This document shows positions 1 to 28,047 of a stretch of DNA of 57,571 nt, in pieces. The stretch is from Coriobacteriia bacterium (GTDB lineage Bacteria > Actinomycetota > Coriobacteriia > Anaerosomatales > PHET01). Location of the stretch: contig WRDS01000001.1 in NCBI GenBank assembly GCA_009779675.1, forward strand, positions 1-57,571, written 5' to 3'. Both the position numbers and the translations under genes were made by a program. The notes under the pieces are model-generated. The model searched no databases. It saw nothing but the letters and a program-made list of their open reading frames with translations, and was not told where the DNA came from. Position 1 is the stretch's first letter. Each line of letters begins with the position of its first letter.

Positions 1-155
1 ATCTATCAAGCGATAGAATAATGGGAGCCCTGAATACGAGCATCGAGCTACAGAAAAAGAGTCTCACATTGCAAGGAATCAGCACTGCATTACAAGGAAT
101 CAACGTCTTGCAACATAAAGAAATGCTTAGATTAGCAAAGATTAGAAACAGGATA

Positions 156-868
156 TTACAGAGTTAAAGTAAAAAGTGAGCGCATAGTGGAATGAAATCG
201 AGCGGGAGGGAATCTGGTCAATAGGCATAGCCGGGCTTTCCGGATTCCCGTCCTCTCACACCACCGTGCATACCGTTCGGTACCCGGCGGTTCGGCAGCT
301 TGAGTGCACCTCCTCGTACTTCTTGGATGCATCTGCATGTCCGCAACGTTTGAGAGGTTCGCTCGCAATGGTAGTGCCAAGGATCCAGCTGCTCGCAGTG
401 CGCCAATAGCCCTTCCGGATGTTCGCCTTACTGCCATGCCTGGCTCCTTGTCGCTTTAAGCCTCATCAGGCTGCGAACCCGCGCTGAGACCTTCTTCCGC
501 GGCTTCCAGATATACATCCCCGCAGCCTGCAGCGTATCCACTGGCTGAGCATCGGATGAGAGCCTTCATGTCGGCAATGCCGAAGTATTGGAGCCACCCG
601 TCGGCGTAGCGCCTCAGCTCGGAGACGACCACATCATAGCTCCGCCCTGGTTCCGCTTGGTGATCCATCTTACCCGCGCCCTGAACCTTTTGACGGACTT
701 CGGATGGATCCTCGCCCCTTTGGTCTTGTCGCTTCTCGTATAGAGGGCAAACCCCAAGGACTTGAGTTTTGTTGGCGAACCGACTCTGCTCTGGTCAATC
801 TCTTCGTCTCCCGAACTTGACCTCTCTAAATCCAGTCGTCCCGTCCGTGGTAGCAATATGCAGAACAA
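156..868 (-). pseudogene. Decayed group II intron-encoded reverse transcriptase/maturase (C-terminal half, frameshifted)
   Basis: Minus-strand ORF fragments 614..868, 456..668 and 156..437/218..406 read in series like the C-terminal half of bacterial intron-encoded proteins ('LGFALY..IHPKSVKRFRARVRWITKRN', 'ELRRYADGWLQYFGIAD', 'NRRVPNGMHGGVRGR' / 'EPPGTERYARWCERTG'). They are split over three frames. No intact RT block is present and I could not recognise domain V/VI downstream. Weak remnants may extend to about 1000. Confidence 0.6.
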
Positions 869-1066
869 ATGCTATTTCTATGAATAAGAACCGAGCCCAA
901 AATGAGACCAGTGGACAGGTGCTACTATGAGCGCAGAACGCAGGAATCGCTTTGGGCGGGAAGTCCTGGCGCAATAGCACAATTCTCGGATCTGATGACG
1001 TGCATCTATTCTGTTCGATCCGGTGGTTTGGCATACCCGCATTCATGAAATAGGGAGGCGCGAGAA

Positions 1067-2080
1067 GTGAAACCGCAAAAAGAGCTGAACTTTGCAAAAA
1101 CCCTCGTATCTTCCTATATAACGAACACGGCCTTCTTTGTACGGATTATCCCGACTGACAGATGTAATTTGAGCTGCAGCTACTGTTTTCAAAAGAACAA
1201 CGATTCTTCGGATATGTCGTGGGATTTATTCTGTCAAGTTCTTGAAAAGGCCGTCAGCCTAGAGGTTGGGCTTATGAGTTTCCTCGGCGGGGAACCTATG
1301 CTTTGGGATCATCTTTATGATGCGCTCGAGCTGTGTTCAAAGCAGAATATCATGACCGATTTGACGACAAACGGAACGTTGCTCGACGACACAACGATCC
1401 AGAAGCTCGGCAGTTCAGGGCTCGACTATTTGAATATCTCGGTCGATACACGCGACAGGAACTCCGTGTCGCGGAAGAACAGGCTCTTTGATGGCAATAT
1501 CGTTGCGGCGTTAAGCTCGGCAGAAAAAGCTTACCGCATGAAAACCAGAATGAACTCGGTAATTTACAACAACAACTTTGAAGATATTAAAGCACTGCTA
1601 GAGCTTTCAAAGCATCGCGACATTCCGATCTCACTTGGCTTCATCGTGCCCGATATGAAAAATCCCGGCGAAAAAGACATACACTTCTCAGAGCAGGATA
1701 GTGACCTATTGCACGAGATTGTTGACTACATCCTCGCGAAAAAAGATGAGCACTACCCCGTCATAGACCACAAATCATACTTCACGAATGTATTCAGGTT
1801 TCTCAGGCACGAGCAGTTTTGGAAGTGTAATTATCCAACAAGGTTTGGGTGGATCAACGTCGCCCCTAACGGAGCAATCCGAAGCTGTACCAAAAAAATG
1901 GATGCATTAGACATCGACTTCCTCTCATTGACACCGGAGAAAATCGCACGTCTCAAAGAGACCTTGGAGGAATCTGTAAAAGAGTGCAATCCTTATTGCT
2001 ACTCCAATTGCGCCTATGATTCTGCATATTATAAAGCGAATAAGGCATCTTTCGTTATTGATAAGTTTGTAAGGTTTTAA
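1067..2080 (+). CDS. Radical SAM enzyme with C-terminal Cys-rich (SPASM/twitch-like) region
   Basis: CxxxCxxC cluster 'DRCNLSCSYC', 'FLGGEPML' and 'TTNGTLL' motifs. C-terminal cysteines 'WKCNYP','RSCTKK','ECNPYCYSNC'. GTG start lies 8 nt after GGGAGG. The block is AT-richer than the rest of the window. Confidence 0.8.
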   Translation: MKPQKELNFAKTLVSSYITNTAFFVRIIPTDRCNLSCSYCFQKNNDSSDMSWDLFCQVLEKAVSLEVGLMSFLGGEPMLWDHLYDALELCSKQNIMTDLTTNGTLLDDTTIQKLGSSGLDYLNISVDTRDRNSVSRKNRLFDGNIVAALSSAEKAYRMKTRMNSVIYNNNFEDIKALLELSKHRDIPISLGFIVPDMKNPGEKDIHFSEQDSDLLHEIVDYILAKKDEHYPVIDHKSYFTNVFRFLRHEQFWKCNYPTRFGWINVAPNGAIRSCTKKMDALDIDFLSLTPEKIARLKETLEESVKECNPYCYSNCAYDSAYYKANKASFVIDKFVRF

Positions 2081-2092
2081 CCCCGGGCAGAT

Positions 2093-3502
2093 GTGAGCAG
2101 GCGCAAACAAATGAGGTACGTATTACAAAATAGGTGGAAGCTCGAGGATGGCCAGCTTATCTATTACGGTATTCGCAAAAAGCCGTATTTGAACAAGAAC
2201 ACCATCAGGCTCACAAAAAAGGAGATCGCGTTTTTCCGAGATCTCATAAACGGTACCTGTGATACTCAAAGTGAGCTTTTCGAGGCATATGTTGGTCAGG
2301 GCATTATTGTTCCGGAAGATAAGTACGTCAAAACACCGGGCACTCTCGATGACGCTACGTTTTGCAAATCCTGTATAGCAAACAATTACATTATCCCGGG
2401 AATTGAGTTTGATGAAGAGGGTCTGTGCCCTATATGTGCCGACACAGAGAAGCACCTGGTCTCGATACTGCCAATCCAGAACGTGTTCCAGCAGTCCAAG
2501 AACAGGGCAGGACGTTTTGATGTAGCGCTGTTTTACACTGGGGGCAAGGATTCAACCTACCTTCTATACTATTTGTCGAAGAAATTAAACCTCCGGGTGG
2601 TAGCCCTCACCTGGGAGCTTCCGTATATGTCCGACAATGCTCGGCAAAGCATTGAGAACGCACACAGGCTATTTCCCAATGTTGAGTTCGTTTCACGGCG
2701 GATTGCCGACGCTGATCTGAAACCAATGTTTAGAAAGTTGCTTGAGCTCCAAAACAACACCTGTGCATGCACTTCGATAGCCCATGCCATATTCTATTCA
2801 TTGCTTTGCGAGGAGCGGGTACCCTATGTGGTACTGGCTAACGAACCAGCTCAGATGAAGGCGCTTTATTACAACAGAATAGTGCCAAAAATGGCGTACA
2901 CCGCACGCGACAACAAGGCACTGGACTTCCTGATGAATGTGGGAAGACTCCTGTTATTGAAGAAGCCGCTCAAAAGCGGACAGCGGGAAATGCTTATGCT
3001 GGTCAGACAACTGGCATATGGCGACGGGTTGATCAAGCGGTTATCAGGTAGCAAGAATCAGCTGGTATCCAACGTGTGCCTGTCAATGGACTACATCCCT
3101 AATCTCAAACAGAATCTCAAAAGAGCAATACGGCAAAGCGATAGGCGAGCGCTGATGCCGGCATTCGTCCATGTTGATCTGAACGACATCTCAGAAAGTG
3201 ATACCTATGATTATGAGAGCGTGAAGGAGTTCCTCACAGCAGAGTGCGGCTTTGTTATGCCTCAAAGCAAACACAAGATATTGCACACGAGTTGCGCCGT
3301 GGAAGCCGCAAAAGATTACTCTCAATTCAAAAGATTCTATGACATGGAATCGCAGATCATGCCGTATTCTGCACTCGAATTGATCATCGCCTCAACGAAC
3401 AACAATATCGAGCGAGACGCTGCTATGGAGGAGATAAGACACGGTTTGGTCTTAGAGCAACCCCATGAGCACAAGGTAATGCAAGACTATTCGAACAGCT
3501 GA
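2093..3502 (+). CDS. PP-loop ATP pyrophosphatase, N-acetyl sugar amidotransferase-like (WbuX/PseA-type layout)
   Basis: Zn-ribbon-like 'CKSC-x17-CPIC' is followed by PP-loop 'FYTGGKDSTY' and 'RVVALTWELPYMSDNARQSIENA', the layout I associate with the TIGR03573 family. It lies 12 nt after the rSAM stop. Start is uncertain (GTG 2093 versus ATG 2111). Confidence 0.65.
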   Translation: MSRRKQMRYVLQNRWKLEDGQLIYYGIRKKPYLNKNTIRLTKKEIAFFRDLINGTCDTQSELFEAYVGQGIIVPEDKYVKTPGTLDDATFCKSCIANNYIIPGIEFDEEGLCPICADTEKHLVSILPIQNVFQQSKNRAGRFDVALFYTGGKDSTYLLYYLSKKLNLRVVALTWELPYMSDNARQSIENAHRLFPNVEFVSRRIADADLKPMFRKLLELQNNTCACTSIAHAIFYSLLCEERVPYVVLANEPAQMKALYYNRIVPKMAYTARDNKALDFLMNVGRLLLLKKPLKSGQREMLMLVRQLAYGDGLIKRLSGSKNQLVSNVCLSMDYIPNLKQNLKRAIRQSDRRALMPAFVHVDLNDISESDTYDYESVKEFLTAECGFVMPQSKHKILHTSCAVEAAKDYSQFKRFYDMESQIMPYSALELIIASTNNNIERDAAMEEIRHGLVLEQPHEHKVMQDYSNS

Positions 3503-3511
3503 TCAAAATGG

Positions 3512-4177
3512 ATGGGCACTGGCTCCAGCACTACTTGCGCGACCGTCGGTAATCCAACCATCAAAATGGATGTGGAGCCATTGGCCCCAGAAAAAAGACC
3601 GTTTCTTGGGTATGAGAATCTTGCAAACAGTATCACTATGCTGGGCTTATTCTTTGCTCTTGCAAGCTGTTACTTCGCAGGGTATAGGAATCTCAGACTG
3701 AGCATCATATGCCTTATCGTTTCCGGGATCTGCGACATGAGTGATGGTGCGGTTGCACGCATGATCAATCGGACAACTGAGGAAAAGAAATTTGGCATCC
3801 AATTGGACACGATCGCGGATGTCATCAGTTTTGGCGTAACCCCGGTAATCATTATGTTCTCGCTTGGCGCGAGGGCGTGGTACGTGCTTATTGTTTATGC
3901 CTTCTATGTAACCTGTGCGGTAATTCGGCTTGCACATTTCAACACCAGCGCTGTTCCGGACGTGCACAAGCCATATTACCGAGGATTGCCTGTAACGAAT
4001 GTCGCGTGGATCTTGCCTGCCATCACTCTTTTTGGTTCAGTACCTGCTGGTGTCGTGACTCTCGCAGTTCTCGGATTCTTTTTTGTCCTGAATATCAAAG
4101 TGCCGAAACTGCGCATAACGGTTATTCTCGGCCCGGTTCTGATGATTTCCTTGTTGCTGCTGTGGTGGCTACGCTAG
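3512..4177 (+). CDS. CDP-alcohol phosphatidyltransferase, small PssA-like
   Basis: 'CDMSDGAVARMINRTTEEKKFGIQLDTIADVISFGVTP' matches the D-x2-DG-x2-AR..G-x3-D-x3-D signature, with an R-to-G spacer about 3 residues longer than I recall for PssA/PgsA. Multiple hydrophobic helices. It lies 9 nt after the upstream stop. An alternative ATG exists at 3566. Confidence 0.8.
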   Translation: MGTGSSTTCATVGNPTIKMDVEPLAPEKRPFLGYENLANSITMLGLFFALASCYFAGYRNLRLSIICLIVSGICDMSDGAVARMINRTTEEKKFGIQLDTIADVISFGVTPVIIMFSLGARAWYVLIVYAFYVTCAVIRLAHFNTSAVPDVHKPYYRGLPVTNVAWILPAITLFGSVPAGVVTLAVLGFFFVLNIKVPKLRITVILGPVLMISLLLLWWLR

Positions 4178-4512
4178 TCTCTTGGGTCACCGCCTAATAC
4201 ATCTCCCGTATGCCTATCGAGATAAAGTGTTATCGACCCAAGTAGTGGATCTTGCGTAGTGGTAAAGGTGACTTTCCATACTCCTTGTTTTTGCGGACCA
4301 TACCCATCCATGCGTGCAACACTTGGCGAGTTAAAATTAGTGATTGTGTCTAAAGTTTGTTGCGATCCGCCAGATTTAAGATGTGCTCGGGCTATTTTTG
4401 CAGCTCCCTTGGCAGTTAATTCGGCTGGTTCGGTGCTGCTCGCTCCCCCCTTGCACCCTGATAGCATCACGAGAAGCGCGACGAAAACTAAGATCGCAGT
4501 AGCTTTTTGCAT
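4174..4512 (-). CDS. Small lipoprotein, PepSY-like
   Basis: Start trimmed to ATG 4512, 5 nt after AGGAG. Signal/lipobox 'MQKATAILVFVALLVMLSGC'. C-terminal 'WKVTFTT..ITLYLDRHTGDVLG' resembles a PepSY fold. Its 3' end converges on and overlaps the 3512..4177 stop by 4 nt. Confidence 0.55.
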   Translation of the reverse strand: MQKATAILVFVALLVMLSGCKGGASSTEPAELTAKGAAKIARAHLKSGGSQQTLDTITNFNSPSVARMDGYGPQKQGVWKVTFTTTQDPLLGSITLYLDRHTGDVLGGDPRD

Positions 4513-4939
4513 GAATGCTCCTGTCCCTTTATCAAGGTAGTTTTCATCAATGCGACCTCGCCTTTTGCATCTTGCTAATCGTTGAATAGTGACAACCACG
4601 CTTCCGGCTAATCGCACAGACGCCCATCCCGCTTCCGGTGTGGCCAATGGTGATCTGACCAATTTCTTCGTCACTGGACCTGCGCCGACTATATTGTCGC
4701 ACGTTCTTGATCACCTTGGCTCCATCAGCACTGCCAATCCGCACTGTAACTCTTTTTATCCGCACCACACTGGATGTTTTTGCAAGATTTTGGCATCCGG
4801 CAAGAACATTTGGCATCTTTCCGTCGTCTTAGTAATCACGGACAGGCTTTGGGCATGAGCGCCGCTCCCCAATAGACATGTCAGAACTCCGGTAACGCGA
4901 TAAACATGGAGGTGCATCATTGCAACCAAAATAAAGATC

Positions 4940-5848
4940 GTGCCGGTCAAAAAACAGGTAACCCCTAAATATCCGGATCAGTATTCCGTCGAGCTCAACC
5001 GTTTGCTGCTTGAAAACAGGCCGCTGCGCTGGTACGCAACGCCTGTGGCAGGCACTGTGTTGTCCGCTGTAGTCATACTTGGGCTTGCGGGGTGCAATAG
5101 CGGAGCCGCCTTGACGGGAGATTCTGCGCCTCAGCCCGCTCTTGGAACAGAAACCACAACCATGGGGGGTGTTGCGCCTCCGTCCGCTCCTGGGACGGGT
5201 GCCATAACAATGGGGGACTTTGCGCCTCCACCCATTTTCGGAACGCCGTTTTTCGAGCATGGCAATGGCGTCGGCACCTATGGCTGTCAGGCAGTTGCTG
5301 CACCGGTCTTCTTATCAGAAGACGACGCTTTTGCCATCATCAAAGACGAGTTCAAGAAGTCGGGTCTGGTCGTACGGCAAAATGGTGGCACGATCGAAAA
5401 TATCCAGATCCCGAAACCTAACCCGTACTATTCGCCACGCGATAATGATAGTCGCATGCAAACTGTAAAAGGCAGGCTTGATTTCGACTTTACCGTGCAG
5501 GGCAGAAACATCGTTATGGAATATGTTTCCACCGATGATATGCGTATGTGGGAATCTGCTGGGCCGGATGAAAATGGAATCATGCGGGTCTCAACTGTAT
5601 CGCGCTATGACTACAAAGAAGCTGCACGAACACTAAATGATGGCCTGAACAGATCCGATCACGGAAATGTGCATGGCGTGTTCTACGACCCGGTTGAACG
5701 GGTAGATATGATGAGCGTCTCAAAAGCCGATGACTGGAAAAAAGCCCGCGCTCGGCTCGAGAAGGAAGCGCGTCAACGAGCCTCCGCCGAGTTGCGAGAG
5801 CAAGTCAAGGATTTCATCGAGTGGCTCTCGGCGCAGGGGATCATTTAA
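4940..5848 (+). CDS. Hypothetical membrane-anchored/lipoprotein-like protein
   Basis: 302-aa ORF with a hydrophobic helix ending in lipobox-like 'LGLAGC', followed by a Gly/Pro/Thr-rich linker and a globular domain. The stop TAA is immediately followed by the ATG of the rSAM gene. The GTG start has no clear SD, so the start is uncertain. Confidence 0.5.
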   Translation: MPVKKQVTPKYPDQYSVELNRLLLENRPLRWYATPVAGTVLSAVVILGLAGCNSGAALTGDSAPQPALGTETTTMGGVAPPSAPGTGAITMGDFAPPPIFGTPFFEHGNGVGTYGCQAVAAPVFLSEDDAFAIIKDEFKKSGLVVRQNGGTIENIQIPKPNPYYSPRDNDSRMQTVKGRLDFDFTVQGRNIVMEYVSTDDMRMWESAGPDENGIMRVSTVSRYDYKEAARTLNDGLNRSDHGNVHGVFYDPVERVDMMSVSKADDWKKARARLEKEARQRASAELREQVKDFIEWLSAQGII

Positions 5849-6991
5849 ATGCACTATACGCTCCATCTGACCGCAGAATGCAACATGCGCTGCCAATACT
5901 GCTATGTCTCGCAGTCAGCGGATCGCATGTCTGCCGATACCGCGCATAAAGCCGTCGACCTTGCGTTGCGATCCGGCGGCCATCGCCTCGGCTTGATATT
6001 TTTTGGCGGTGAGCCGTTGTTGTGCCGTGACTTGATCGAAGACACCGTGGCGTATTCGACAGAGCAGGCGCACGCATCCGGGCATGGAAGGTTTTTCTAC
6101 AAAATAACTACCAACGGACTTCTTCTGGATGACGCGTTTTTGCAGTATGCCCGCACACACGACATATTTATCGCCCTGTCCATAGACGGGACAGAAAGGG
6201 CGCATGACGCCCACAGGCGGCAAAAGGGCGGTGCTCCCACGCATGATCGGGTCGTTGCCGCGGCGGAACGCCTGTTGCGATCCTTCCCGTATGCGCCAGC
6301 TCTGATGACCGTGAGCCCCGACACCGTGCAGTGGTATGCCGAGTCTGTTGAGTTCTTGTATTCGCTCGGCTTTCGATATCTGATCTGCTCGCTGCATTAC
6401 GCCGCCGAATGGGACAGGGCGGCACTCGGCGAGTTGAAACGGCAGTATGACAGGTTGGCATCGTTCTATTATGAACACACGGTCAAGGAGGATAAATTCT
6501 ATCTCAGCCCCTTTGATGTGAAGATAAGCAGCCATGTGCATAACAAGACATATCGTCACGAGCGCTGCGAGCTCGGGCAACACCAGCTCTCGATCGCGCC
6601 GGATGGCGGGATATATCCCTGCGTGCAGTTTGTAGGCGACGTTGGGTATAGGATCGGCGATGTGCAGAGCGGCATAGACGAAGAGGCTCGCAAGGCGCTA
6701 TACGTCCGGAACGAGACGGAAAAGCCGGGTTGCGACGACTGCGCGATCCAAAAGCGTTGCAACCACTACTGCGCGTGCTTGAACAAGCAGGCCACCGGCA
6801 GCATTGGTACCGTATCCGAAGTGCTCTGCGCCCACGAGCGCATTGTCCTGCCGATCGCCGACCGCGTTGCTGCGCGGCTGTACAAAAAGCGCAGCCCCAT
6901 GTTTATCCAAAAGCACTACAACGATCTATATCCATTGATATCACTCGCCGAGGATAAAGCCATAAAAGACGCCACGTGCGGCTCAGCATAG
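5849..6991 (+). CDS. Radical SAM/SPASM-domain maturase (anaerobic sulfatase-maturase-like)
   Basis: 'AECNMRCQYCY' CxxxCxxC cluster, 'FFGGEPLL', 'TTNGLLL'. C-terminal SPASM-type cysteines 'RCELG..YPCVQF..GCDDCAIQKRCNHYCACLN..LCAHE'. Length about 380 aa, as in AnSME-type enzymes. Confidence 0.8.
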   Translation: MHYTLHLTAECNMRCQYCYVSQSADRMSADTAHKAVDLALRSGGHRLGLIFFGGEPLLCRDLIEDTVAYSTEQAHASGHGRFFYKITTNGLLLDDAFLQYARTHDIFIALSIDGTERAHDAHRRQKGGAPTHDRVVAAAERLLRSFPYAPALMTVSPDTVQWYAESVEFLYSLGFRYLICSLHYAAEWDRAALGELKRQYDRLASFYYEHTVKEDKFYLSPFDVKISSHVHNKTYRHERCELGQHQLSIAPDGGIYPCVQFVGDVGYRIGDVQSGIDEEARKALYVRNETEKPGCDDCAIQKRCNHYCACLNKQATGSIGTVSEVLCAHERIVLPIADRVAARLYKKRSPMFIQKHYNDLYPLISLAEDKAIKDATCGSA

Positions 6992-6998
6992 AGCACAC

Positions 6999-7033
6999 GC
7001 GGGCTGCAGCCCCATGCTTGGAGTGCAGCCCGC
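6999..7033 (+). terminator. Stem-loop after the rSAM/SPASM gene
   Basis: GCGGGCTGCA-15 nt-TGCAGCCCGC (10-bp GC-rich stem), 8 nt after the stop at 6991. No clear U-tract. Confidence 0.35.
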
Positions 7034-7174
7034 GCTCTGGTCACGCTGTATGTCAGGTCTTACCCGGATCAGTTCTTGCTAGTGGTGTCAGATCCTGTCA
7101 ATGCCAAACTTTGTTAGCATCGGATCTTGCTGTACGTCAGATCTTGTTGCGCGTCGTGCCTACTTTTGCAGGCC

Positions 7175-10100
7175 TCAGTCGATCAGCATCGCCCGCAGCT
7201 TGTTCATGACACTCTCGGAGACCACATTGTCCCCGCCATAGATCTGGATGTCTGGCTTGATGCCCCCGTACGCGCCTGACAGGTAGCCCTCCCAGTTCTG
7301 GGAGAGCGCGTCTGGCGTGGTGAGCACGAGTATGCCGCCACGCTCGCCTGTCGCAGCCCCTCCGGCAAGCGCGTCAGGGAAGTTCAACCCTGTGGCCACA
7401 CCGATGAAGTTCTTGGTGGCAAGCGAGTTGTCAAACGCGTGCCTTGCTATCGCCTCTGCGGTGGCGTAGCGGTCTGTGCCGGCGACACGTCTGACGGTCA
7501 GGTCCGTACCGAGGGCACCGACCTCTGCCTCGACGCTTGCAGATACCGCAGCGACAGAGCCGAGTATGGTGACATCCATGATGCCGAGAGCCTGGATGGC
7601 ACTCCCTGCAGGGGCGGGGAGCTCTGCCGGACGGGTGAGAACGACCGGCATCTTGTTTCGATACGCAAGCGGGGATGCGGCAAGCCCGTCTGCGAAGTTG
7701 TCGCCGCGGGCAAGGAACGCCTTCTTGGCAAACGAGGTGCCCTCAAGCTCTGCAACCTTGTCTGCAATAGCAGTGCTCGTGGCGTAGCGGTCGGCACCGG
7801 CGATGCGCTCGACGTTTATGCCTGCCTCGCCAAGCAGGCCTTCTACTGCGTTAGAGACCGCTGCAGAAGAGCCCATGATGTAGGCTTGTTTTGCACCGAG
7901 GCGATTGATCTCGCCAAGCACACCGGTGCTCAAGGACTCGGTCCTCGTAAGCAGAAGTGGGGCGGAAAGCGAGCCTGCGAGCGCGCTTGCAGAAAGCGCG
8001 TCTGCGTAGTTCGCACCAGTGGCTATGATGACCGCGTTAGCGGACGTGAAGTTTCTCTTGCTGACCTCGATGGCGGTCGCATAGCGGTCTGCGCCTGATA
8101 TACGGGTGATCGTGCCGCCTGAGCCGTCGCCCTTGATCCTGTGGCAGCCGTCGCAGCCGTAGGTCTCCGGCCTGATGTAGCCGTGGCTTTCAGGGGCATC
8201 ATCGTCCGTGTGCCCTGGCTCGAGGTCAGGAGCCTCCGCGATGCGGTGGCACCCGGCATCCGTGCAGCCGGTGATGACGGGGTCGGTATGGCACATGTCC
8301 TCGCACCCAGTGCTTGTGGAGTCAAAACCCGCGCCATGCACCGTCTCGGCATGTTTGTCTTTCACAGTAGCCGTGATCGGCATGTCCTCTGGCTCAGGAT
8401 CGTCAGGATCCTCGAGGGTGATGGCAAAAGTGACGGTGTTGTGCGGCTCTTCCTCGTTCTCCTCGTTGTCAACCGCCCAGAACTCGAGCGTGTAGGTGCC
8501 TTCCCTTGAGGCAGCAACAACCGCCTCGTCCCCCAGGGTCACAACCGGTTCTTCGTCGTTCAAAATGTAGGTGACCTCACGCACACCGCTTGACTCCTCG
8601 TTCCCAGGACCCTCATCGGTGGCAGTGATGGTGATCGTGGCCGTGCCGACATAGCTCGCTTCAGCATCGCAGGCCGAGGACGGAGGGGTCTTGTCAGGGA
8701 GAAGGCCCACGCGGAACACCGCTATGTTGTGCGGCTCTTCCTCGTTCTCCTCGTTGTCAACCGCCCAGAACTCGAGCGTGTGGGTGCCTTCCTCTGAGAC
8801 GGTTATCGTCGTTGTGACATCGTAGGCAGGCGCGGCACCTGTAGGTGTCACGGTCTCTACATCGCCGTCATCAACTTTGTAATAGAGCGCTGCCACGCCC
8901 GAGCCGCCCGTCTCGTCGGTCGCGGTGAGGGTGATCACCGCAGGCGCGGATGCATAGCCAAGGGCCGCATCGGAGCCAGACACCGGGGGAGTCGTGTCGG
9001 GGAGGGCCGTGACGGTAAATTTGACCTCCGTGTGCGGGAACTCCTCGTTCTCCGCGTTATCAACTGCCCAGAACTCGAGCGTGTGGATACCATCGCCTAC
9101 GACAGTGACGGTAGCCGTGACCACATACGCTGGCAAAGCGCCTGTGGGCATCACGGTCTCTATGCCGCCGTCGTCGACTTTGTAGTAGAGCGCCGCCACG
9201 CCCGAGCCGCCCGTCTCGTCGGTCGCGGTGAGGGTGATCGTGGCCATGCCGACATAGCTCGCCTCGATGTCACAGATCGTAGCAGGCGGGGTCTCATCGG
9301 GTGGCGGGCCGCTGATAAGGATCGGGGTGCTCGTGCTCACCGTTGTCTCGTTGCCGAGCTTCCCATACTCGTTGCTTCCCCACGCCCAGAGCGAACCGTC
9401 ACTTTTCGTGGCAAGAGTGTGGCTGCTTCCTGCGCTGATCGCTCTCCAGCCAATATCAGTCTCAACCTGTGTGGGGACATCCTTACCGGCACCCGAACCG
9501 CTGGTACCAATGCCGAGCTGCCCATACTCGTTGTTCCCCCAAGCCCAAAGGGAGCCGTCACGTTTTGTGCCAAAGGAGTGATACCTCCTTGCGGTGATCG
9601 CTTCCCAATCGGCACCACTCCCAATCTGGGTGGGAGCATTCTTGTTGTAAACCGAGCCGGTCGAACCGCCGCCGAGCTGTCCAGAATTGTTGTAACCCCA
9701 CGCCCAGAGCGAGCCATCGCCCTTGATGCCGAGGGAGTGGTCCTCGCCTGCAACAACCGCTTTCCAATCGGCAGCTGTTCCGGCTTTGGTCGGGATATTC
9801 CTGTTCGCAGTCGCACCGTTCGCACTGTTGCCGAGCTGCCCATAGAAGTTATATCCCCATGCCCAAAGCGTGCCGTCGTCTTTGATGGCAAGGGAGTGGC
9901 GACCTCCTGCGCTAACGTCCTGCCATGCATCGGTAGCGACCCCGATGAGGACAGGGGTGCTCGTGTTCACCGTCGTGCCGTTGCCGAGCCGACCAAACTC
10001 GTTATACCCCCATGCCCAGAGCGAGCCGTCGTCTTTTATGGCACAGGAATGATTGTCTCCTGCACTGACCGCCGTCCAGTCGTAGTCGGCCCCGATGCGA

Positions 10101-10564
10101 ACAGGGACGTTCTTGTCGTTGGCATTCGTCCCGCTCCCGCCAGTCCCATCGCCAAGCTGGCCCCAGGGGTTAAACCCCCATGCCCAGAGCGAGCCATCCT
10201 CCTTGAGCGCAAGGGAATGGCTGTGGCCTGCGCTGATCGCCTCCCAATCGGTATCGTCTCCGATCTGGGTGGGGACGTTCTTGCTTGTATTCGTACCGTC
10301 GCCGAGCTGTCCTGTCCTGTTAACCCCCCATGCCCAAAGCGTGCCGTCGTCCCTTAGGCCAAGGGAGTACCCATCCCCTGCGCTTACAGCCGTCCATTTT
10401 GCAAACGGCTGGCTTTCGGCCAGTATGGCAGCGCCCCTATCGGAACCTCCAGCCAGTGCCTCGGCATTCGACTGTCCCTGTGCAGAAGCGCTCAGGGGCG
10501 AGAGCACAAGGATCGTGGCAAGGATAAGACCGACAAGAGAACCGGATTGCCCGAACCGACGCAT
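7175..10564 (-). CDS. Secreted, cell-wall-anchored RCC1 beta-propeller protein with Ig-like modules, a Cys/His (haem-motif) linker and three CWB2 repeats
   Basis: Signal peptide 'LILATILVLSPLSASAQG'. Seven blades of 'DG(S/T)LWAWGxNxxGQLGxG'. Three Ig-like modules of about 95 aa ('TLTATDETGGSGVAALYYKVDDG..HTLEFWAVDNxENEE'). 'CEDMCH','CTDAGCH','CDGCH' motifs. Three C-terminal 'GADRYATA'-type cell wall binding repeat 2 units. Confidence 0.85.
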   Translation of the reverse strand: MRRFGQSGSLVGLILATILVLSPLSASAQGQSNAEALAGGSDRGAAILAESQPFAKWTAVSAGDGYSLGLRDDGTLWAWGVNRTGQLGDGTNTSKNVPTQIGDDTDWEAISAGHSHSLALKEDGSLWAWGFNPWGQLGDGTGGSGTNANDKNVPVRIGADYDWTAVSAGDNHSCAIKDDGSLWAWGYNEFGRLGNGTTVNTSTPVLIGVATDAWQDVSAGGRHSLAIKDDGTLWAWGYNFYGQLGNSANGATANRNIPTKAGTAADWKAVVAGEDHSLGIKGDGSLWAWGYNNSGQLGGGSTGSVYNKNAPTQIGSGADWEAITARRYHSFGTKRDGSLWAWGNNEYGQLGIGTSGSGAGKDVPTQVETDIGWRAISAGSSHTLATKSDGSLWAWGSNEYGKLGNETTVSTSTPILISGPPPDETPPATICDIEASYVGMATITLTATDETGGSGVAALYYKVDDGGIETVMPTGALPAYVVTATVTVVGDGIHTLEFWAVDNAENEEFPHTEVKFTVTALPDTTPPVSGSDAALGYASAPAVITLTATDETGGSGVAALYYKVDDGDVETVTPTGAAPAYDVTTTITVSEEGTHTLEFWAVDNEENEEEPHNIAVFRVGLLPDKTPPSSACDAEASYVGTATITITATDEGPGNEESSGVREVTYILNDEEPVVTLGDEAVVAASREGTYTLEFWAVDNEENEEEPHNTVTFAITLEDPDDPEPEDMPITATVKDKHAETVHGAGFDSTSTGCEDMCHTDPVITGCTDAGCHRIAEAPDLEPGHTDDDAPESHGYIRPETYGCDGCHRIKGDGSGGTITRISGADRYATAIEVSKRNFTSANAVIIATGANYADALSASALAGSLSAPLLLTRTESLSTGVLGEINRLGAKQAYIMGSSAAVSNAVEGLLGEAGINVERIAGADRYATSTAIADKVAELEGTSFAKKAFLARGDNFADGLAASPLAYRNKMPVVLTRPAELPAPAGSAIQALGIMDVTILGSVAAVSASVEAEVGALGTDLTVRRVAGTDRYATAEAIARHAFDNSLATKNFIGVATGLNFPDALAGGAATGERGGILVLTTPDALSQNWEGYLSGAYGGIKPDIQIYGGDNVVSESVMNKLRAMLID
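8420..9292 (-). repeat. Intragenic tandem triplication (about 280-bp units) encoding the Ig-like modules
   Basis: Near-identical DNA blocks such as 'gttgtgcggctcttcctcgttctcctcgttgtcaaccgcccagaactcgagcgtgt' recur at about 8440 and 8720, with a diverged copy near 9030. 'gccacgcccgagccgcccgtctcgtcggtcgcggtgagggtgatc' recurs at about 8893 and 9194. Confidence 0.8.
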
Positions 10565-10684: not shown

Positions 10685-13219
10685 TCAGAGTTGTACCAAC
10701 TCGGAGTTCTTCACCCGTTTATACAGTATTTCGGCAATATTCGGGTGACACGTGAAAAACAATACCTGTCGCTCGGAGGCGAGCGCGGCGATTGCGGCTG
10801 CCGCTTCTGCCCGACGAGCCGGATCAAAGTTCACAACCACATCGTCCATGAGGATAGGAAGCGAGCGCCCAAGCCCGCCTAAAGAGCCGATGAGCCCCAC
10901 GCGCAACGCCAGATACAGCTGCTCGGCAGTCCCGCGAGAGAGCTCACGGGTGGATCGCACGGCACCATCATGGGCAACAGCCGAGATCTCCTTGCCGTCG
11001 ATCCGCACACGGAGATCGGAGTAGCGGCCCTCGGTCATCGCCGAGAACACCTGCGCCGCACGCATCACGACCTCGGGTTGCCGCTCCCGCTCAAAGCGCT
11101 CACACGCACGGTCCATAAGCCTCACGGCAAGCCCGGCCACAAGGAAGCGGCTGGCCGCCTCGTCTGCCTCGACCCGCAAGCCCTCGAGTTCCTGTCGTGC
11201 ACTGGCCAGTGCGTCGTCACGTCCCTGCTCGTCGATGCGCGCGCTTAGGCTGGCCTCGTCGCGGCATGCCTGCTCATGGCGCTCCCGCACGTGATCGAAG
11301 TCTGCGGCCAGGCTCGCCGCACGGGCTGCCAGCTCGTCCGCCACCTCATGCGGCGAGAGCCCCGCTGCCCCTGCCAAGCCGTACTCGCTCGCAATGGCCT
11401 CGGCCTCTGAGGCAAGCGCATCGTGCTGATGCGCAAGATCCCGGTGCCTTGCTTCTGCCGCCTCCAGCTGCCCCGCGAGCTGCTTGCGCTCGTCTGCCAC
11501 TTCCGCCGCACGCTTCACCGCAACCCGCACGCGCTCTGCAAGCCCTAATGCCGCTGTCAACTCCGGCACCTGGGCGAATGCAGGATCGACCAGCCCGGCT
11601 GCCTCGACCAGCCGCAGGACCCACGCCTCGGCAATTTTGCGGCCATTCGCCGCCGCCGCTTCTATGCGCTCATGCTCGGACGCAAAGCCATCGCGCTCCC
11701 GGATCTGCTCAAGCAGGCCGATCACCGCCAGCGGGTCGTCCCCAAAAGCATCGAGCGAGTGCTCCTCAAGCCATGACCTCCACCTTAAGGCGGCCTGATC
11801 CTGCGCGTCTTTTGCCCGCTGGACAGCTTGGGCCGCCGACGTGACATCGGCTCGCAGGCGCAAGACCTTCCCAGACGTCTCCTCTGACGACGACTGGTTG
11901 GACGAATGCGGCCTCGCGCCGATAAGGGCGCATACCGAGGCAAACACCAATATCACGCCGCCAAAAACGGCTGCCATCGTCTGGTGCATCAGCGCGCCGA
12001 CAAGAGCAGCCCCTGCGCCGAGCGCCGCCAAGGCCACCCCGATCCAAAGGATCGTACGGTCTGGGCGCTCCTTTTGCGCCGGCGCATCAGCAACAACCGC
12101 CTCTTCGCGGGCCAAGTCGTCCTCGGCGGCTCTCATCGCCTGCTGTCGATGCTCGAGATCGCGGCGCGCATCATTCAGGCGGTCCTTCCACCTATCGACC
12201 GCTACCCGCAGCTCGGGCGAATCAGCCGCATCCGCAGGCAGTCGGCCAAAAGCTCGCTTGCGCCGAGCGGTTTCTGCAGCCTGCTCGTCCAAGCTGGCTA
12301 TCTGTGCAAGCCGCTCGCGGAATGCAGATGCGTCCTCAAGGACCGCCTGGACTGCAGGTGCCGCTGCCAGGGCGTTCTCATCGACCACCAGCAACTCGGA
12401 CTTGCGACGCACTCTCTCGGCCTCGGCCTCGGCTCCCTTAAGCTCATCGGCCAGCCGCGTAAGCTGCTCAGCCCTGTCTGCGGCCCGCTCCTGCAAGCGC
12501 CCAAGCAGACCCAGCCGCCCGCCGAGCGCGTCACGCTCCTCTTTGAGCCGTGCAGCCTGTGCCCTGAGCCTCTCCAGGCGATCCTGCTCGCCAGATGCCA
12601 CCGCAGCATCCCGCTCAAGCTCTCGGATCCGCTTGCGCACTTCGCTAAGGCGAGAGGCAAGCCGGTTGATCTCCTGGTTCTTGCCACGCTGCTTGTAGAG
12701 GGACTCGGCTTCGACCGCAAGCTTGCTGCGGATGTCCACCGGGTTGACCGCAAGCCCCGTTGTCGCCGCATACAACCGGCCTACAACGTCCTCGCTCCCG
12801 CCGCTTTCTATCTCGGCAAGCTCGTCCAAGCCAAAACCGAACACCACGCGGTACTCTTCTTTTGACACCCCGCCCGTTATCTCGCCGAGAAGCCCAGGAC
12901 GCTCCGACCCTCTGCGCGCAACAACCTTCACAAGCCCTCGGTCCTTGCCCTCGAACCGCTCGATAGCCCACTCCCCGCCCGCAGACTCGAACACCAGCCG
13001 CCCATGACGGGATCCCGCCGACGGCGAATAGGAACGCTCCTTTTCCCGGCGGTCGGGAAAACCATAGAGCACATGCCTGACAAGGGCGGCAAGCGTCGAT
13101 TTGCCTGACTCGTTCGGGCCGAGCACGACAGTAAGCCCATCGCCAGGTACTTCTAGGCGGGCCCCCTCAAGGGCACCGTAGCGCACTGCCTCGGCTGACC
13201 GCAGCCTCACCGGATCCAT
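10685..13219 (-). CDS. AAA/SMC-like ATPase, YhaN/SbcC-like
   Basis: Walker A 'GPNESGKST'. Long Ala/Glu/Arg coiled-coil interrupted by two hydrophobic helices ('ILWIGVALAALGAGAALVGAL','AAVFGGVILVFASVCALIGA'). C-terminal 'SRGTAEQLYLALR' signature and 'LPILMDDVVVNFD' Walker B. Confidence 0.75.
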   Translation of the reverse strand: MDPVRLRSAEAVRYGALEGARLEVPGDGLTVVLGPNESGKSTLAALVRHVLYGFPDRREKERSYSPSAGSRHGRLVFESAGGEWAIERFEGKDRGLVKVVARRGSERPGLLGEITGGVSKEEYRVVFGFGLDELAEIESGGSEDVVGRLYAATTGLAVNPVDIRSKLAVEAESLYKQRGKNQEINRLASRLSEVRKRIRELERDAAVASGEQDRLERLRAQAARLKEERDALGGRLGLLGRLQERAADRAEQLTRLADELKGAEAEAERVRRKSELLVVDENALAAAPAVQAVLEDASAFRERLAQIASLDEQAAETARRKRAFGRLPADAADSPELRVAVDRWKDRLNDARRDLEHRQQAMRAAEDDLAREEAVVADAPAQKERPDRTILWIGVALAALGAGAALVGALMHQTMAAVFGGVILVFASVCALIGARPHSSNQSSSEETSGKVLRLRADVTSAAQAVQRAKDAQDQAALRWRSWLEEHSLDAFGDDPLAVIGLLEQIRERDGFASEHERIEAAAANGRKIAEAWVLRLVEAAGLVDPAFAQVPELTAALGLAERVRVAVKRAAEVADERKQLAGQLEAAEARHRDLAHQHDALASEAEAIASEYGLAGAAGLSPHEVADELAARAASLAADFDHVRERHEQACRDEASLSARIDEQGRDDALASARQELEGLRVEADEAASRFLVAGLAVRLMDRACERFERERQPEVVMRAAQVFSAMTEGRYSDLRVRIDGKEISAVAHDGAVRSTRELSRGTAEQLYLALRVGLIGSLGGLGRSLPILMDDVVVNFDPARRAEAAAAIAALASERQVLFFTCHPNIAEILYKRVKNSELVQL

Positions 13220-24097: not shown

Positions 24098-25624
24098 TCA
24101 CATCAGGTAGTCATCAATGTCTACCGAGACGAGCTCGGGATCGACACATCGGTTCACGACGATGCCGGTCATCTCCTCGAGATCGATATCGATGGGATTT
24201 ACCAGCTTGCCCGCAGGGGTGGCAATGACGCGGATCTTCGGTCGCATAGGGTTGGCCCCTGGCTCAAGGACAACTGCAAGCCGCCCATCCTCAAGAAGCA
24301 CAAGTGAGCGCGGAGGATAGATGCCCATGGTATATATGAAGAGCCGCACGAGCACCGGATCCAATGCGGAGCCGCATCCTTTGAGGAGTTCGGCGACGGC
24401 TTGATCCTGTAGGCGTTCACCCGAGTAACTGCGCTTGGATGTCATGGCATCAAACGTGTCGGCGACGGCGATGATCCTGCTGGCCAGGTTCTGTTTGCAG
24501 AAAGGCGTCCGCGTTGGGTAGCCCTGCCCGTCAAAGCGCATATGGTGCTCAAGGATTGCAACGATGACCGTTCTGTCCATGCCTGGCATACCCACGGCCA
24601 TAGATGCCCCGGCCTGTGGGTGCTTCTGCATTATCTCCCACTCCTCATCCGAAAGCGTGCTCGCCTTGTTCAGGATGTCGAAGTCGACAGTAAGCTTCCC
24701 TATGTCGTGCAGCAGCGCACCGATGCCAAGCGACGTCAAAAAGCGGTAGTCCTCGGTGATCATCGACCCCAGCGCAACCGACAGGATCGCGACGTTCGCA
24801 GAGTGGTAGAACGTGTACTCGTCGTAGTCTTTGAGGCCCGTAAGCCGAAGCATGGCGGCCCGGTTCGTCAACACGTTGTCGACAAGGGAGCGGACCGGCT
24901 TCTTGACCTTGCCCGCTGCTGCAGCAAGCGCGCCCGACCGGACAAGCCGGTTGACCTCTCGGACAAGCTGGAGCGCTCCCGAGTAGGACTCCCAGGCTAC
25001 CGCCTCAGACTCCTCGTCGGAGATCGAGACACGCTTGGCAGCAATGAGCGTGGTGATGCGGACCCCTTCCACTCCCAGCGCCAGCAGCATTGCGCTTGAG
25101 CCGCCCGCAGCATCGACCTCCTCCGTCTCAGAGGCCAACACCGAGAGAAGTGACCCGATCTCTTCTTCGGTCGCATCCTGGTAGATGGTGATCGTCCCTA
25201 CGGCAATATCTTCCAGGTCGTATATAAGTTGCGCAAACGAGCGGGTCTCGGCGGGAAGAAGCTGATCGCCCAGATAGACCTCGCCCTCGTGGAAGGTGAG
25301 TGTTATGTCAACCTTCTCGGCATGGTACGCCCGCACGACATCGGCGAGCCGCTTGAGCGATTCTTTGACAGTAGGATGTGTGCTGGGATAGAGCCGGTGC
25401 GACCGCCGCGTGCTGTAAAGCCTGGTGAGCAGCTCACGCGCCCGTCGCACTTGCTCGGCCGTGTACTTTGCGAACTCAGTTTTCCCTAGGGGATCGCTGG
25501 GATCCTCGGCAGGGCCCTCCGGCTGCGTGTGCTCGAGGCCCTCGGCGGGGGGGGCCTCCGACCGCGTGTGCTCGAGGCCCTCGGCGGGCCCCGGGGTCTG
25601 CTGGGAGCCGTGATCGGCCATCAC
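24098..25624 (-). CDS. HD-GYP domain phosphodiesterase (c-di-GMP-type) with long N-terminal sensor region
   Basis: 'GALLHDIGK' and 'ILEHHMRFDGQGYP' HD-GYP signatures. The GTGATG start overlaps the upstream HEAT gene stop. Duplicated 'PAEGLEHT' at the N-terminus. Confidence 0.85.
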   Translation of the reverse strand: MMADHGSQQTPGPAEGLEHTRSEAPPAEGLEHTQPEGPAEDPSDPLGKTEFAKYTAEQVRRARELLTRLYSTRRSHRLYPSTHPTVKESLKRLADVVRAYHAEKVDITLTFHEGEVYLGDQLLPAETRSFAQLIYDLEDIAVGTITIYQDATEEEIGSLLSVLASETEEVDAAGGSSAMLLALGVEGVRITTLIAAKRVSISDEESEAVAWESYSGALQLVREVNRLVRSGALAAAAGKVKKPVRSLVDNVLTNRAAMLRLTGLKDYDEYTFYHSANVAILSVALGSMITEDYRFLTSLGIGALLHDIGKLTVDFDILNKASTLSDEEWEIMQKHPQAGASMAVGMPGMDRTVIVAILEHHMRFDGQGYPTRTPFCKQNLASRIIAVADTFDAMTSKRSYSGERLQDQAVAELLKGCGSALDPVLVRLFIYTMGIYPPRSLVLLEDGRLAVVLEPGANPMRPKIRVIATPAGKLVNPIDIDLEEMTGIVVNRCVDPELVSVDIDDYLM

Positions 25625-27669: not shown

Positions 27670-27712
27670 AATCGTTCATTTGCAAGTCAACGGTGCCATA
27701 TGCCAACGGTAC

Positions 27713-27805
27713 ACTCAAATGCCCTGTATATCACCTCTGCACCACTCAAACACCCTGTATATCATTCGCATGCTACATAGATACTCTATATATTATTCGC
27801 ACGCT
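27713..27805. repeat. Three tandem 31-bp AT-rich repeats in the divergent HEAT-operon / maf promoter region
   Basis: A ACTCAAATGCCCTGTATATCACCTCTGCACC, B ACTCAAACACCCTGTATATCATTCGCATGCT, C ACATAGATACTCTATATATTATTCGCACGCT. They lie 44-136 nt upstream of the start at 27669. Confidence 0.75.
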
Positions 27806-28047
27806 CACATATAAGTATAGCCATCAACCAATACTTAGGGTAAAACATCGGCAAACATAAAATGCCGCAAAAATACCAACCGGCGCATTTAATGAGCCAT
27901 GTCGATTACCATATCAAGTTTTTTGGCTAGTTGCACAGTTACCGTATCAGGTTTTTGCACCAATATTGTATTCTTTATCAGAATTTTTCCCTGCAGCAAT
28001 CGTATGGACAGTAACAATCGTGTTAAGGGAGCTTTGGCTACCTTTTA

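Follow-up and report, generated by a model that had tools for sequence, protein, structure and literature searches.

A three-gene cassette of radical SAM, PP-loop and PssA-like enzymes in a Coriobacteriia contig as a candidate operon for a modified phospholipid head group

Overview

In a contig from a metagenome-assembled genome (MAG) of Coriobacteriia (WRDS01000001.1; 57,571 nucleotides (nt), referred to below as the window), three adjacent genes of the forward strand encode a radical S-adenosylmethionine (SAM) enzyme (gene 1; 1067-2080, +; 337 amino acids (aa)), a Zn-ribbon PP-loop ATP pyrophosphatase (gene 2; 2093-3502, +; 469 aa; NCBI locus tag FWE94_00015) and a PssA-like cytidine diphosphate (CDP)-alcohol phosphatidyltransferase (gene 3; 3512-4177, +; 221 aa). 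We tentatively read these three genes as one mobile operon, which would serve the synthesis of an accessory, modified serine-type glycerophospholipid head group. The integrity of the genes, their folds and motifs at the family level, the foreign composition of the cassette and the recurrence of the gene order are observed. An initial annotation of this DNA had found no pathway to which the cassette could be assigned, and we came to the same result: no profile puts any of the three proteins in a characterised pathway. Nor is it likely that the genes belong to separate well-known pathways, as the NCBIfam cut-offs are missed by all three of them. A literature search for the combination of a radical SAM, a PP-loop and a PssA-like enzyme found no description of it.

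Recurrence of the gene order

The genomic contexts of the transferase subclade to which gene 3 belongs (at least 48% identity) were read for three lineages: the window, locus L006, and loci L013 and L069, which count as one. In 3/3 of these lineages, the transferase gene directly follows an orthologue of the radical SAM or the PP-loop gene. Locus L006 contains a PP-loop gene (61% identity) and then a CDP-alcohol phosphatidyltransferase gene (about 50%); the locus begins with 33 nt that translate to VFLQDNFKTF*, i.e. the last 10 codons of a radical SAM gene (compare C-termini such as AFIMDNFKKIF), and therefore the full order of the trio is present. In L013/L069, a radical SAM gene (64%) is directly followed by the transferase gene (50-51%), without a PP-loop gene. 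A metagenome scan with the radical SAM protein as query gave one locus. A fourth linked pair may exist, since a longest contig of 3,444 bp is listed for both the radical SAM protein P0125 and the transferase P0259. Of the loci whose PssA-like gene has no more than 43% identity, 0/52 have a radical SAM or PP-loop homologue within 8 kb; for 3/3 versus 0/52, Fisher's test gives p = 3.8e-5, a value to be read in the light of the shared ancestry of the lineages, which are not independent. Since the flanking genes differ across the window, L006 and L013/L069, and protein identities are only 49-64%, the genes have stayed adjacent through long divergence and relocation. None of the family-invariant residues has been lost in the three proteins of the window. 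Among the top 120 matches per protein there are no gene fusions; these occur only among distant NASAT-like domains (with non-ribosomal peptide synthetases (NRPS) and ThiF). Some further radical SAM orthologues have membrane genes related to glycerophospholipids as neighbours; one of them, from a Propionibacteriaceae MAG, is encoded 25 nt downstream of the gene of a GPDPase_memb protein.

The initial annotation had proposed a horizontally acquired module and had made its idea depend on the trio occurring together elsewhere. The foreign composition and the recurrent order (the trio in L006, the pair in L013/L069) agree with this proposal, whereas most radical SAM and PP-loop homologues are found apart from the other genes. 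The latter observation would also fit a different and rather unlikely explanation, according to which the three genes are unrelated cargo of a genomic island that owe their adjacency to one mobile ancestor and share no pathway; so would the foreign G+C content beside a putative decayed group II intron maturase and the small number of supporting lineages, which stem mostly from one ENA study (ERZ272573xx). Unrelated cargo would hardly be expected, however, to keep its order at only 49-64% identity in three differing flank contexts; moreover, the subclade transferase was never seen without a partner (outgroups: 0/52), and the catalytic residues are all intact.

Layout and composition of the cassette

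The initial annotation had listed three genes on the same strand with gaps of 12 nt (genes 1 and 2) and 9 nt (genes 2 and 3), which is correct for the open reading frames (ORFs) as first called. Alignments with homologues indicate that gene 2 probably starts at 2111, which gives the 463 aa called by NCBI, and that gene 3 possibly starts at 3563; its homologues have 199-207 aa. With these later starts the gaps may be 30 and 60 nt, and the genes would still be co-directional and tightly packed. Gene 1 starts with GTG, 9 nt downstream of the ribosome-binding site GGGAGG.

The guanine plus cytosine (G+C) content of genes 1, 2 and 3 is 0.444, 0.471 and 0.491, respectively, compared to 0.612 for the rest of the contig (7001 to end). 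The cassette had been described as AT-rich, and the spot counts given in support (25/60 at 1081-1140, 39/60 at 11401-11460) are exact. It lies within a low-G+C stretch (1001-5000, no strand; 0.41-0.51 in windows of 250 nt), which also holds a lipoprotein gene (4174-4674, -) and whose limits, according to the composition profile, are at about 1000 and about 5000. In L013/L069, too, the G+C content of the cassette is below that of the flanks.

In the interval 700-5000, promoter-like sites are not above the shuffled expectation; the number of terminator-like sites is 9, compared to 4.0±2.2 expected, and none is located at an operon boundary. An Rfam scan of positions 1-8000 at E ≤ 0.1 detected no structured RNA and no intron RNA. 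Glycosyltransferase and glutaminase genes are missing within 7 kb of the cassette (ORF list, Pfam, NCBIfam), as had been noticed initially. Likewise, there are no molybdopterin genes near the cassette (ORF list, Pfam), and the cassette itself encodes no carrier protein, NRPS, precursor peptide or transporter (ORF list).

The PssA-like transferase

Gene 3 scores 58.8 bits with PF01066 (cut-off 22), and the motif of the CDP-alcohol phosphatidyltransferases (CAPT) is complete: D75xxDGxxAR-x11-GxxxDxxxD103. It misses the curated cut-offs of PssA (TIGR00473; 77.4 vs 107 bits), archaetidylserine synthase (88.2 vs 240) and a third model (79.1 vs 200). The nearest solved structure is the phosphatidylserine synthase of M. 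jannaschii (MjPSS; 7pow/7b1k). The list of homologues comprises about 21 clusters at 184-226 bits and then continues at 148 bits or less; judged by sequence, gene 3 is a member of a small and separate subclade of PssA-like proteins, which comprises about 20 clusters.

In MjPSS, the residues D62, S63, D66 and F105 coordinate the reacting serine (PMC8633023). Their equivalents in gene 3 are D99, T100, D103 and F143. The exchange of Ser63 for threonine is found in 15/16 subclade members, and serine is kept in 12/12 PssA-like outgroup sequences, so that the signature QLDT of the subclade contrasts with (L/I)DS in the outgroups and MjPSS. This exchange hints at an altered acceptor. In other respects the protein resembles PssA enzymes of the CAPT type (TIGR00473 / NF038087; B. 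subtilis-type PssA, MjPSS and archaetidylserine synthase): it has the full motif D-x2-DG-x2-AR...G-x3-D-x3-D, a similar size and the same class of membrane topology; the equivalents of D62, D66, R101 and F105 of MjPSS are conserved, and the best NCBIfam and PDB matches are in the PssA group. It differs by the Ser63 to Thr and R104 to H exchanges, a shortened loop ahead of the final helices, a C-terminal LWW motif, scores below all curated cut-offs and the location beside a radical SAM gene instead of psd.

The PP-loop enzyme

Gene 2 has no match in Pfam, even at E ≤ 10 and for its N- and C-terminal domains. The Zn ribbon (C91xxC94-x17-C112xxC115, or C91KSC94-x15-G110-L-C112PIC115) precedes the PP-loop T149GGKDS, in which threonine replaces the canonical first serine; this threonine is present throughout the gene 2 family and its sister clades. 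Of the motifs named in the initial annotation, the CxxxCxxC of the radical SAM enzyme, the CxxC-x17-CxxC ribbon and the motif of the CDP-alcohol phosphatidyltransferase are all present, whereas the PP-loop reads TGGKDS where SGGxDS was given there.

The NASAT family is defined by SGGXDS and the zinc-binding motif CXXCXn[GN]XCXXC (PMC10607449). The latter occurs in gene 2; with TIGR03573 (WbuX), however, the protein scores 65.6 vs 203.2 bits, and residues 89-248 align with positions 2-167 of the 344 profile positions. A profile search against the sequences of the PDB also found only the Zn ribbon and the PP-loop. For the AlphaFold2 (AF2) model of gene 2 (predicted local distance difference test, pLDDT, 89), the best match by Foldseek was NASAT from L. 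pneumophila (8wex; E 1e-7, template modelling (TM) score 0.42-0.51), followed by TtuA (5b4e). The model has an extra N-terminal beta-strand/helix domain of about 85 aa. Classification as a 'WbuX/PseA-type amidotransferase', as suggested initially, is overstated, because the alignable part is restricted to the Zn ribbon and the PP-loop.

With the NASAT group (WbuX, WbpG, PseA, LpNASAT; TIGR03573, 8wex), gene 2 shares the Zn-ribbon tetracysteine directly before the PP-loop Rossmann-like domain and the best structural match in the PDB; by analogy, it may activate a carbonyl oxygen in an ATP-dependent manner. In contrast to NASAT, it reaches only a third of the cut-off, aligns with the N-terminal half of the profile only, and has 14-15% identity; TGGKDS, the N-terminal domain and an invariant CxC plus HTSC are further differences. 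In addition, neither glutaminase nor glycan genes are near, and the usual partner of the family is an EFR1 ferredoxin. At the sequence level, gene 2 is no more than remotely related to WbuX/NASAT and belongs to a 'TGGKDS / CxC / HTSC' clade without annotation.

The homologues of gene 2 form 1,242 clusters at 90% identity, mostly from MAGs of gut Clostridia, and all named ones are 'hypothetical proteins'. An exhaustive profile search with the family gave 69 representatives (50% clustering) at E ≤ 1e-30. The invariant residues are C91, C94, C112, C115, F147-S154, C224, C226, H398, S400 and C401. The CxC (C224/C226) and HTSC (H398-C401) motifs are invariant in the family, its sister family and a third tier; the canonical NASAT-like relative P0476 has neither of them. 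The hallmark of the sulfur-inserting subfamily TtcA/TtuA/CtaC is a set of three conserved cysteines that bind a [4Fe-4S] cluster; CtaC, a PP-loop Fe-S enzyme, performs thioamidation in natural-product pathways, and its first Cys pair is located 77 residues after the PP-loop (PMC6772006). The corresponding distance in gene 2 is 71 residues.

The likeness to TtuA/TtcA/Ncs6, CtaC and [4Fe-4S] LarE consists of a PP-loop with an N-terminal zinc ribbon, three conserved cysteines with the first pair about 70-77 residues past the PP-loop, an electron-transfer/Fe-S partner that is co-encoded in most genomes of the family, and TtuA as the second-best fold. In gene 2, however, the pair is CxC and not CxxC, and the third Cys follows 175 instead of about 130 residues downstream; there is no match at the sequence level and no gene for a sulfur carrier (TtuB/ThiS-like), and the Fe-S cluster is only putative. 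Considering these sequence features, Fe-S-dependent exchange of oxygen for sulfur appears at least as likely as amidotransfer. The amidated or amidine head group proposed in the initial annotation is not the favoured chemistry, because the Cys triad has no counterpart in P0476 and resembles the Fe-S site of TtuA/CtaC.

A gene of an EFR1-family ferredoxin directly follows the PP-loop gene in six distinct loci, including that of the 59%-identical P0004. In gut Clostridia this order has no exception, and the stop codon of the PP-loop gene overlaps the start codon of the EFR1 gene (226-257 aa; loci L001-L005 and L007-L009, e.g. L002, 9386-10069). The EFR1 partner consists of a flavodoxin-like domain and two 4Fe-4S motifs (NF038196, 75-96 bits), and in two cases the unit lies a short way downstream of the gene for a TRAM/tRNA U5-methyltransferase. 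Based on this arrangement, PP-loop and EFR1 genes of gut Clostridia are a conserved, translationally coupled two-gene unit. A tblastn search found no EFR1 homologue in the window, and a literature search on the EFR1 ferredoxin gave nothing relevant. None of the eight loci homologous for the PP-loop gene has the context of an O-antigen or nonulosonic-acid cluster.

These contexts bear on the possibility that only the radical SAM enzyme and the PssA-like transferase are coupled, in a two-gene lipid module like that of L013/L069, and that the PP-loop gene has been inserted between them as a passenger of independent function. It would then keep its role in Clostridia, perhaps one related to RNA or a small molecule, with a ferredoxin encoded elsewhere. 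That the pair exists without the PP-loop gene in L013/L069, and that PP-loop orthologues are paired with EFR1 in housekeeping neighbourhoods, in two cases after the methyltransferase gene, is in line with this explanation. We nevertheless give it only a limited chance: in L006 a PP-loop gene is inserted at the same position, with 61% protein identity and other flanks, and the tight spacing suggests co-transcription.

More distant NASAT-like PP-loop domains (P0478, P0483, P0493, P0496, P0508) score 75-79 bits with the family profile. They sit inside the adenylation domains of NRPS, in the order AMP-binding, PP-loop, AMP-binding_C and peptidyl carrier protein (PCP). One NRPS-embedded PP-loop protein also contains radical SAM and B12 domains, and another PP-loop domain of this type forms a fusion with a ThiF E1-like domain. 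This architecture suggests on-line modification of a carbonyl group during the assembly of non-ribosomal peptides.

The radical SAM enzyme

Gene 1 scores 77.5 bits with PF04055 (cut-off 29.5) and has the cluster motif C33-x3-C37-x2-C40. It remains below all NCBIfam cut-offs: the scores are 82 vs 306 bits for PTO1314 and 85.9 vs 325.25 and 85.5 vs 231 bits for two MoaA models, i.e. it is not MoaA by score; the viperin model NF038283 (69.2 vs 180 bits) aligns only over residues 30-174. In 29 homologues (46-69% identity) the residues C33/C37/C40, C254, C274, C307, C311 and C315 are invariant, and the C-terminal Cys pattern is CX14GX4C...CX3CX3C. The invariance of the five C-terminal cysteines points to a probable twitch/partial-SPASM auxiliary-cluster domain. 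The profile searches that the initial annotation had proposed as a check were hence positive for PF04055 (77.5 bits) and PF01066 (58.8 bits), whereas the SPASM family PF13186 did not match gene 1 and the TIGR03573 score of gene 2 (65.6 bits) was below the cut-off.

Structure prediction, also proposed there for the C-terminal cluster, gave an AF2 model with pLDDT 86.7, whose fold is like those of BlsE, SuiB and anSME. The closest structure by TM score is BlsE (7vob, 0.68/0.70), followed by SuiB, viperin, anSME and MoaA. As far as the model goes, the likeness to BlsE gives the fold class and not the function. Like the twitch/SPASM enzymes (BlsE, MoaA, BtrN-like, anSME, SuiB), gene 1 combines CxxxCxxC with a C-terminal Cys-rich domain containing CX14GX4C, and it resembles the cytosylglucuronate decarboxylase BlsE over the full-length fold (TM about 0.7). 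Unlike the solved enzymes, to which it is only 15-21% identical, it has a motif of its own (CNYPT...CTKKMD...CNxxCYSNC). It also differs from the maturases of ribosomally synthesized and post-translationally modified peptides (RiPPs), as it has no RiPP recognition element (RRE) domain and no substrate gene is common to the loci.

The homologues (46-69%) originate from Treponema, Propionibacteriaceae, Desulfonema, Geobacteraceae, Ignavibacteria, Phycisphaerales, Hydrogenedentes and others; by its sequences, this is an uncharacterised family of many phyla. A small Zn_ribbon_2 protein (PF12674; 85-88 aa) is encoded less than 2 kb from stand-alone radical SAM genes in L010 (10646-10903) and L015 (2826-3092); the two copies are 37% identical. 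Since the radical SAM proteins of L010 and L015 are 72% identical, this neighbour may reflect inherited synteny. The window, L006, L011, L012 and L013 lack this gene.

A function in anti-phage defence (pVip) was considered and rejected: the PADLOC matches cover the generic radical SAM core only, and the unrelated radical SAM gene at 5849-6991 was matched as well. No relatives were found on viral contigs of IMG/VR, and a tblastn search of the radical SAM and PP-loop proteins against PLSDB detected no plasmid homologues. The orthologues of both are located in housekeeping neighbourhoods and not in defence ones.

It is for these reasons highly improbable that the cassette consists of ordinary genes, namely a housekeeping PssA, a fragment of a lipopolysaccharide/O-antigen amidotransferase cluster and a MoaA-like or viperin-like (anti-phage) radical SAM enzyme. 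Weak family-level matches to PssA, WbuX, MoaA and pVip do exist, but all curated cut-offs are missed by a wide margin, the pVip matches are not specific to gene 1, and glycosyltransferase, glutaminase and molybdopterin genes are lacking nearby. Phage or viral contigs and plasmids carry no homologues, and the contexts of the radical SAM and PP-loop orthologues are housekeeping ones.

A proposed head-group pathway

If the three genes act together, the cassette would be similar to a pssA-psd operon for the biosynthesis and tailoring of a head group, but with tailoring enzymes from the radical SAM and PP-loop superfamilies. The transferase would condense CDP-diacylglycerol with serine or with a hydroxy amino acid closely resembling it; we propose this step because the protein is PssA-like, the CAPT motif is intact and the acceptor pocket carries the Ser to Thr exchange. 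The PP-loop enzyme would adenylate a carbonyl oxygen (of a carboxylate or an amide) of the head group or its precursor and then replace this oxygen. The incoming atom would most likely be sulfur from a [4Fe-4S] cluster, since the CxC...C triad is invariant and the orthologues have a ferredoxin partner; the alternative is ammonia, as in NASAT. The radical SAM enzyme, probably of the twitch type, would act on that head group or its precursor by a radical mechanism, and by analogy with BlsE, BtrN and MoaA the reaction could be a decarboxylation, a dehydrogenation or C-C/C-H chemistry. Note that we infer the lipid product, the substrate and the order of the steps in their entirety.

The product might alternatively be no lipid at all but a small molecule or peptide, e.g. 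a thioamidated or amidine compound or a nucleotide derivative, which the transferase attaches to or releases from a phospho-alcohol carrier. NASAT-like PP-loop domains embedded in NRPS adenylation domains, in one protein together with radical SAM and B12, would be compatible with such a product, as would the thioamidation by CtaC in natural-product pathways and the additional N-terminal domain (about 85 aa) of the PP-loop protein. The nearest relatives of the radical SAM enzyme include BlsE, viperin and MoaA, which use nucleosides or nucleotides, and RiPP maturases. We consider this distinctly unlikely, as the cassette lacks a carrier protein, NRPS, precursor peptide and transporter, the PP-loop family of Clostridia is found outside biosynthetic clusters, and the transferase is closest to phosphatidylserine synthases.

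Several points weigh against a common head-group pathway. There are only three independent contexts, one of which (L006) shows just 10 codons of the radical SAM gene. Orthologues of gene 1 (54-69%) are stand-alone in Treponema, Desulfonema (e.g. D. limicola, CP061799), the Propionibacteriaceae MAG and L015, and most radical SAM and PP-loop homologues at 50-63% identity occur without the other two genes. The radical SAM proteins linked to a transferase are not mutual closest relatives; the stand-alone one of L015 is 68.7% identical to both. The usual partner of the PP-loop gene is the EFR1 ferredoxin and not a gene of the cassette, and as L013/L069 lacks a PP-loop gene, the latter is dispensable for the role of the radical SAM-transferase pair. 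The low G+C content could in part mirror the protein composition. A literature search for the proposed lipid, and for radical SAM enzymes in combination with CDP-alcohol transferases or PssA, gave nothing relevant, and to our knowledge no lipid of this kind has been reported.

The head-group reading can be carried further, to a claim that we regard as unlikely: some anaerobes of gut and sediment would contain an undescribed class of phospholipids, whose serine-type head group is altered by the radical SAM enzyme and converted to a thio-compound (thiocarboxylate or thioamide) or an amidine by the Fe-S PP-loop enzyme. The PP-loop family would then represent a new carbonyl-thiolating type with a wider substrate range.

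Neighbouring features of the window

Directly upstream of the cassette, at the end of the contig, lies what may be left of a frameshifted group II intron maturase gene (456-868, -), which is part of the mobility context and not of the pathway. The initial annotation had called it decayed: the reading frame is indeed broken over 456-868, and GIIM (PF08388) matches 456-668 (-) with 20.7 bits, yet this is below the cut-off of 23 and Rfam reports no intron RNA. The label is plausible, though weak.

The small putative lipoprotein on the other side (4174-4674, -; internal start MQKATAILVFVALLVMLSGC) is encoded convergently to the transferase gene, with overlapping stop codons; it matches no family and is not kept beside the cassette in L013/L069. 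A fourth conserved gene is missing: the convergent gene after the transferase is non-homologous between the window and L013/L069. Further downstream follow a 302-aa protein with the lipobox LGLAGC (4940-5848, +; no Pfam or NCBIfam match) and a 380-aa radical SAM/SPASM enzyme (5849-6991, +), which scores highest with the PapB family of ranthipeptide maturases (229 bits, cut-off 340). This enzyme has no N-terminal RRE domain, and no obvious Cys-rich precursor peptide was seen near it. The G+C content of 4940-6991 is 0.54-0.56, higher than in the cassette and lower than in the genome. At 7175-10564 (-), a secreted protein of 1,129 aa combines RCC1-like repeats, repeated Ig-like modules and C-terminal cell-wall-binding repeats (ADRYATA-type), and is probably a surface or S-layer-associated protein. 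A G+C dip to 0.50 at 27001-28000 corresponds to the 5' half of a 682-aa ORF (25621-27669, -) and reaches past it.

Significance

The diversity of bacterial phospholipid head groups is thought to be largely catalogued, and we know of no radical SAM or PP-loop chemistry on such head groups. The evidence for the linkage of the three genes is real but thin. Independently of this linkage, the invariant Cys triad and the conserved ferredoxin partner make the PP-loop family by itself attractive for enzymological work. If the proposed pathway is true, the cassette would offer a compact three-gene handle for heterologous lipidomics, and it would provide the first function for two sizeable 'dark' families: a radical SAM family spread over many phyla, and a PP-loop family without a Pfam entry that is abundant in the gut Clostridia of humans and animals.

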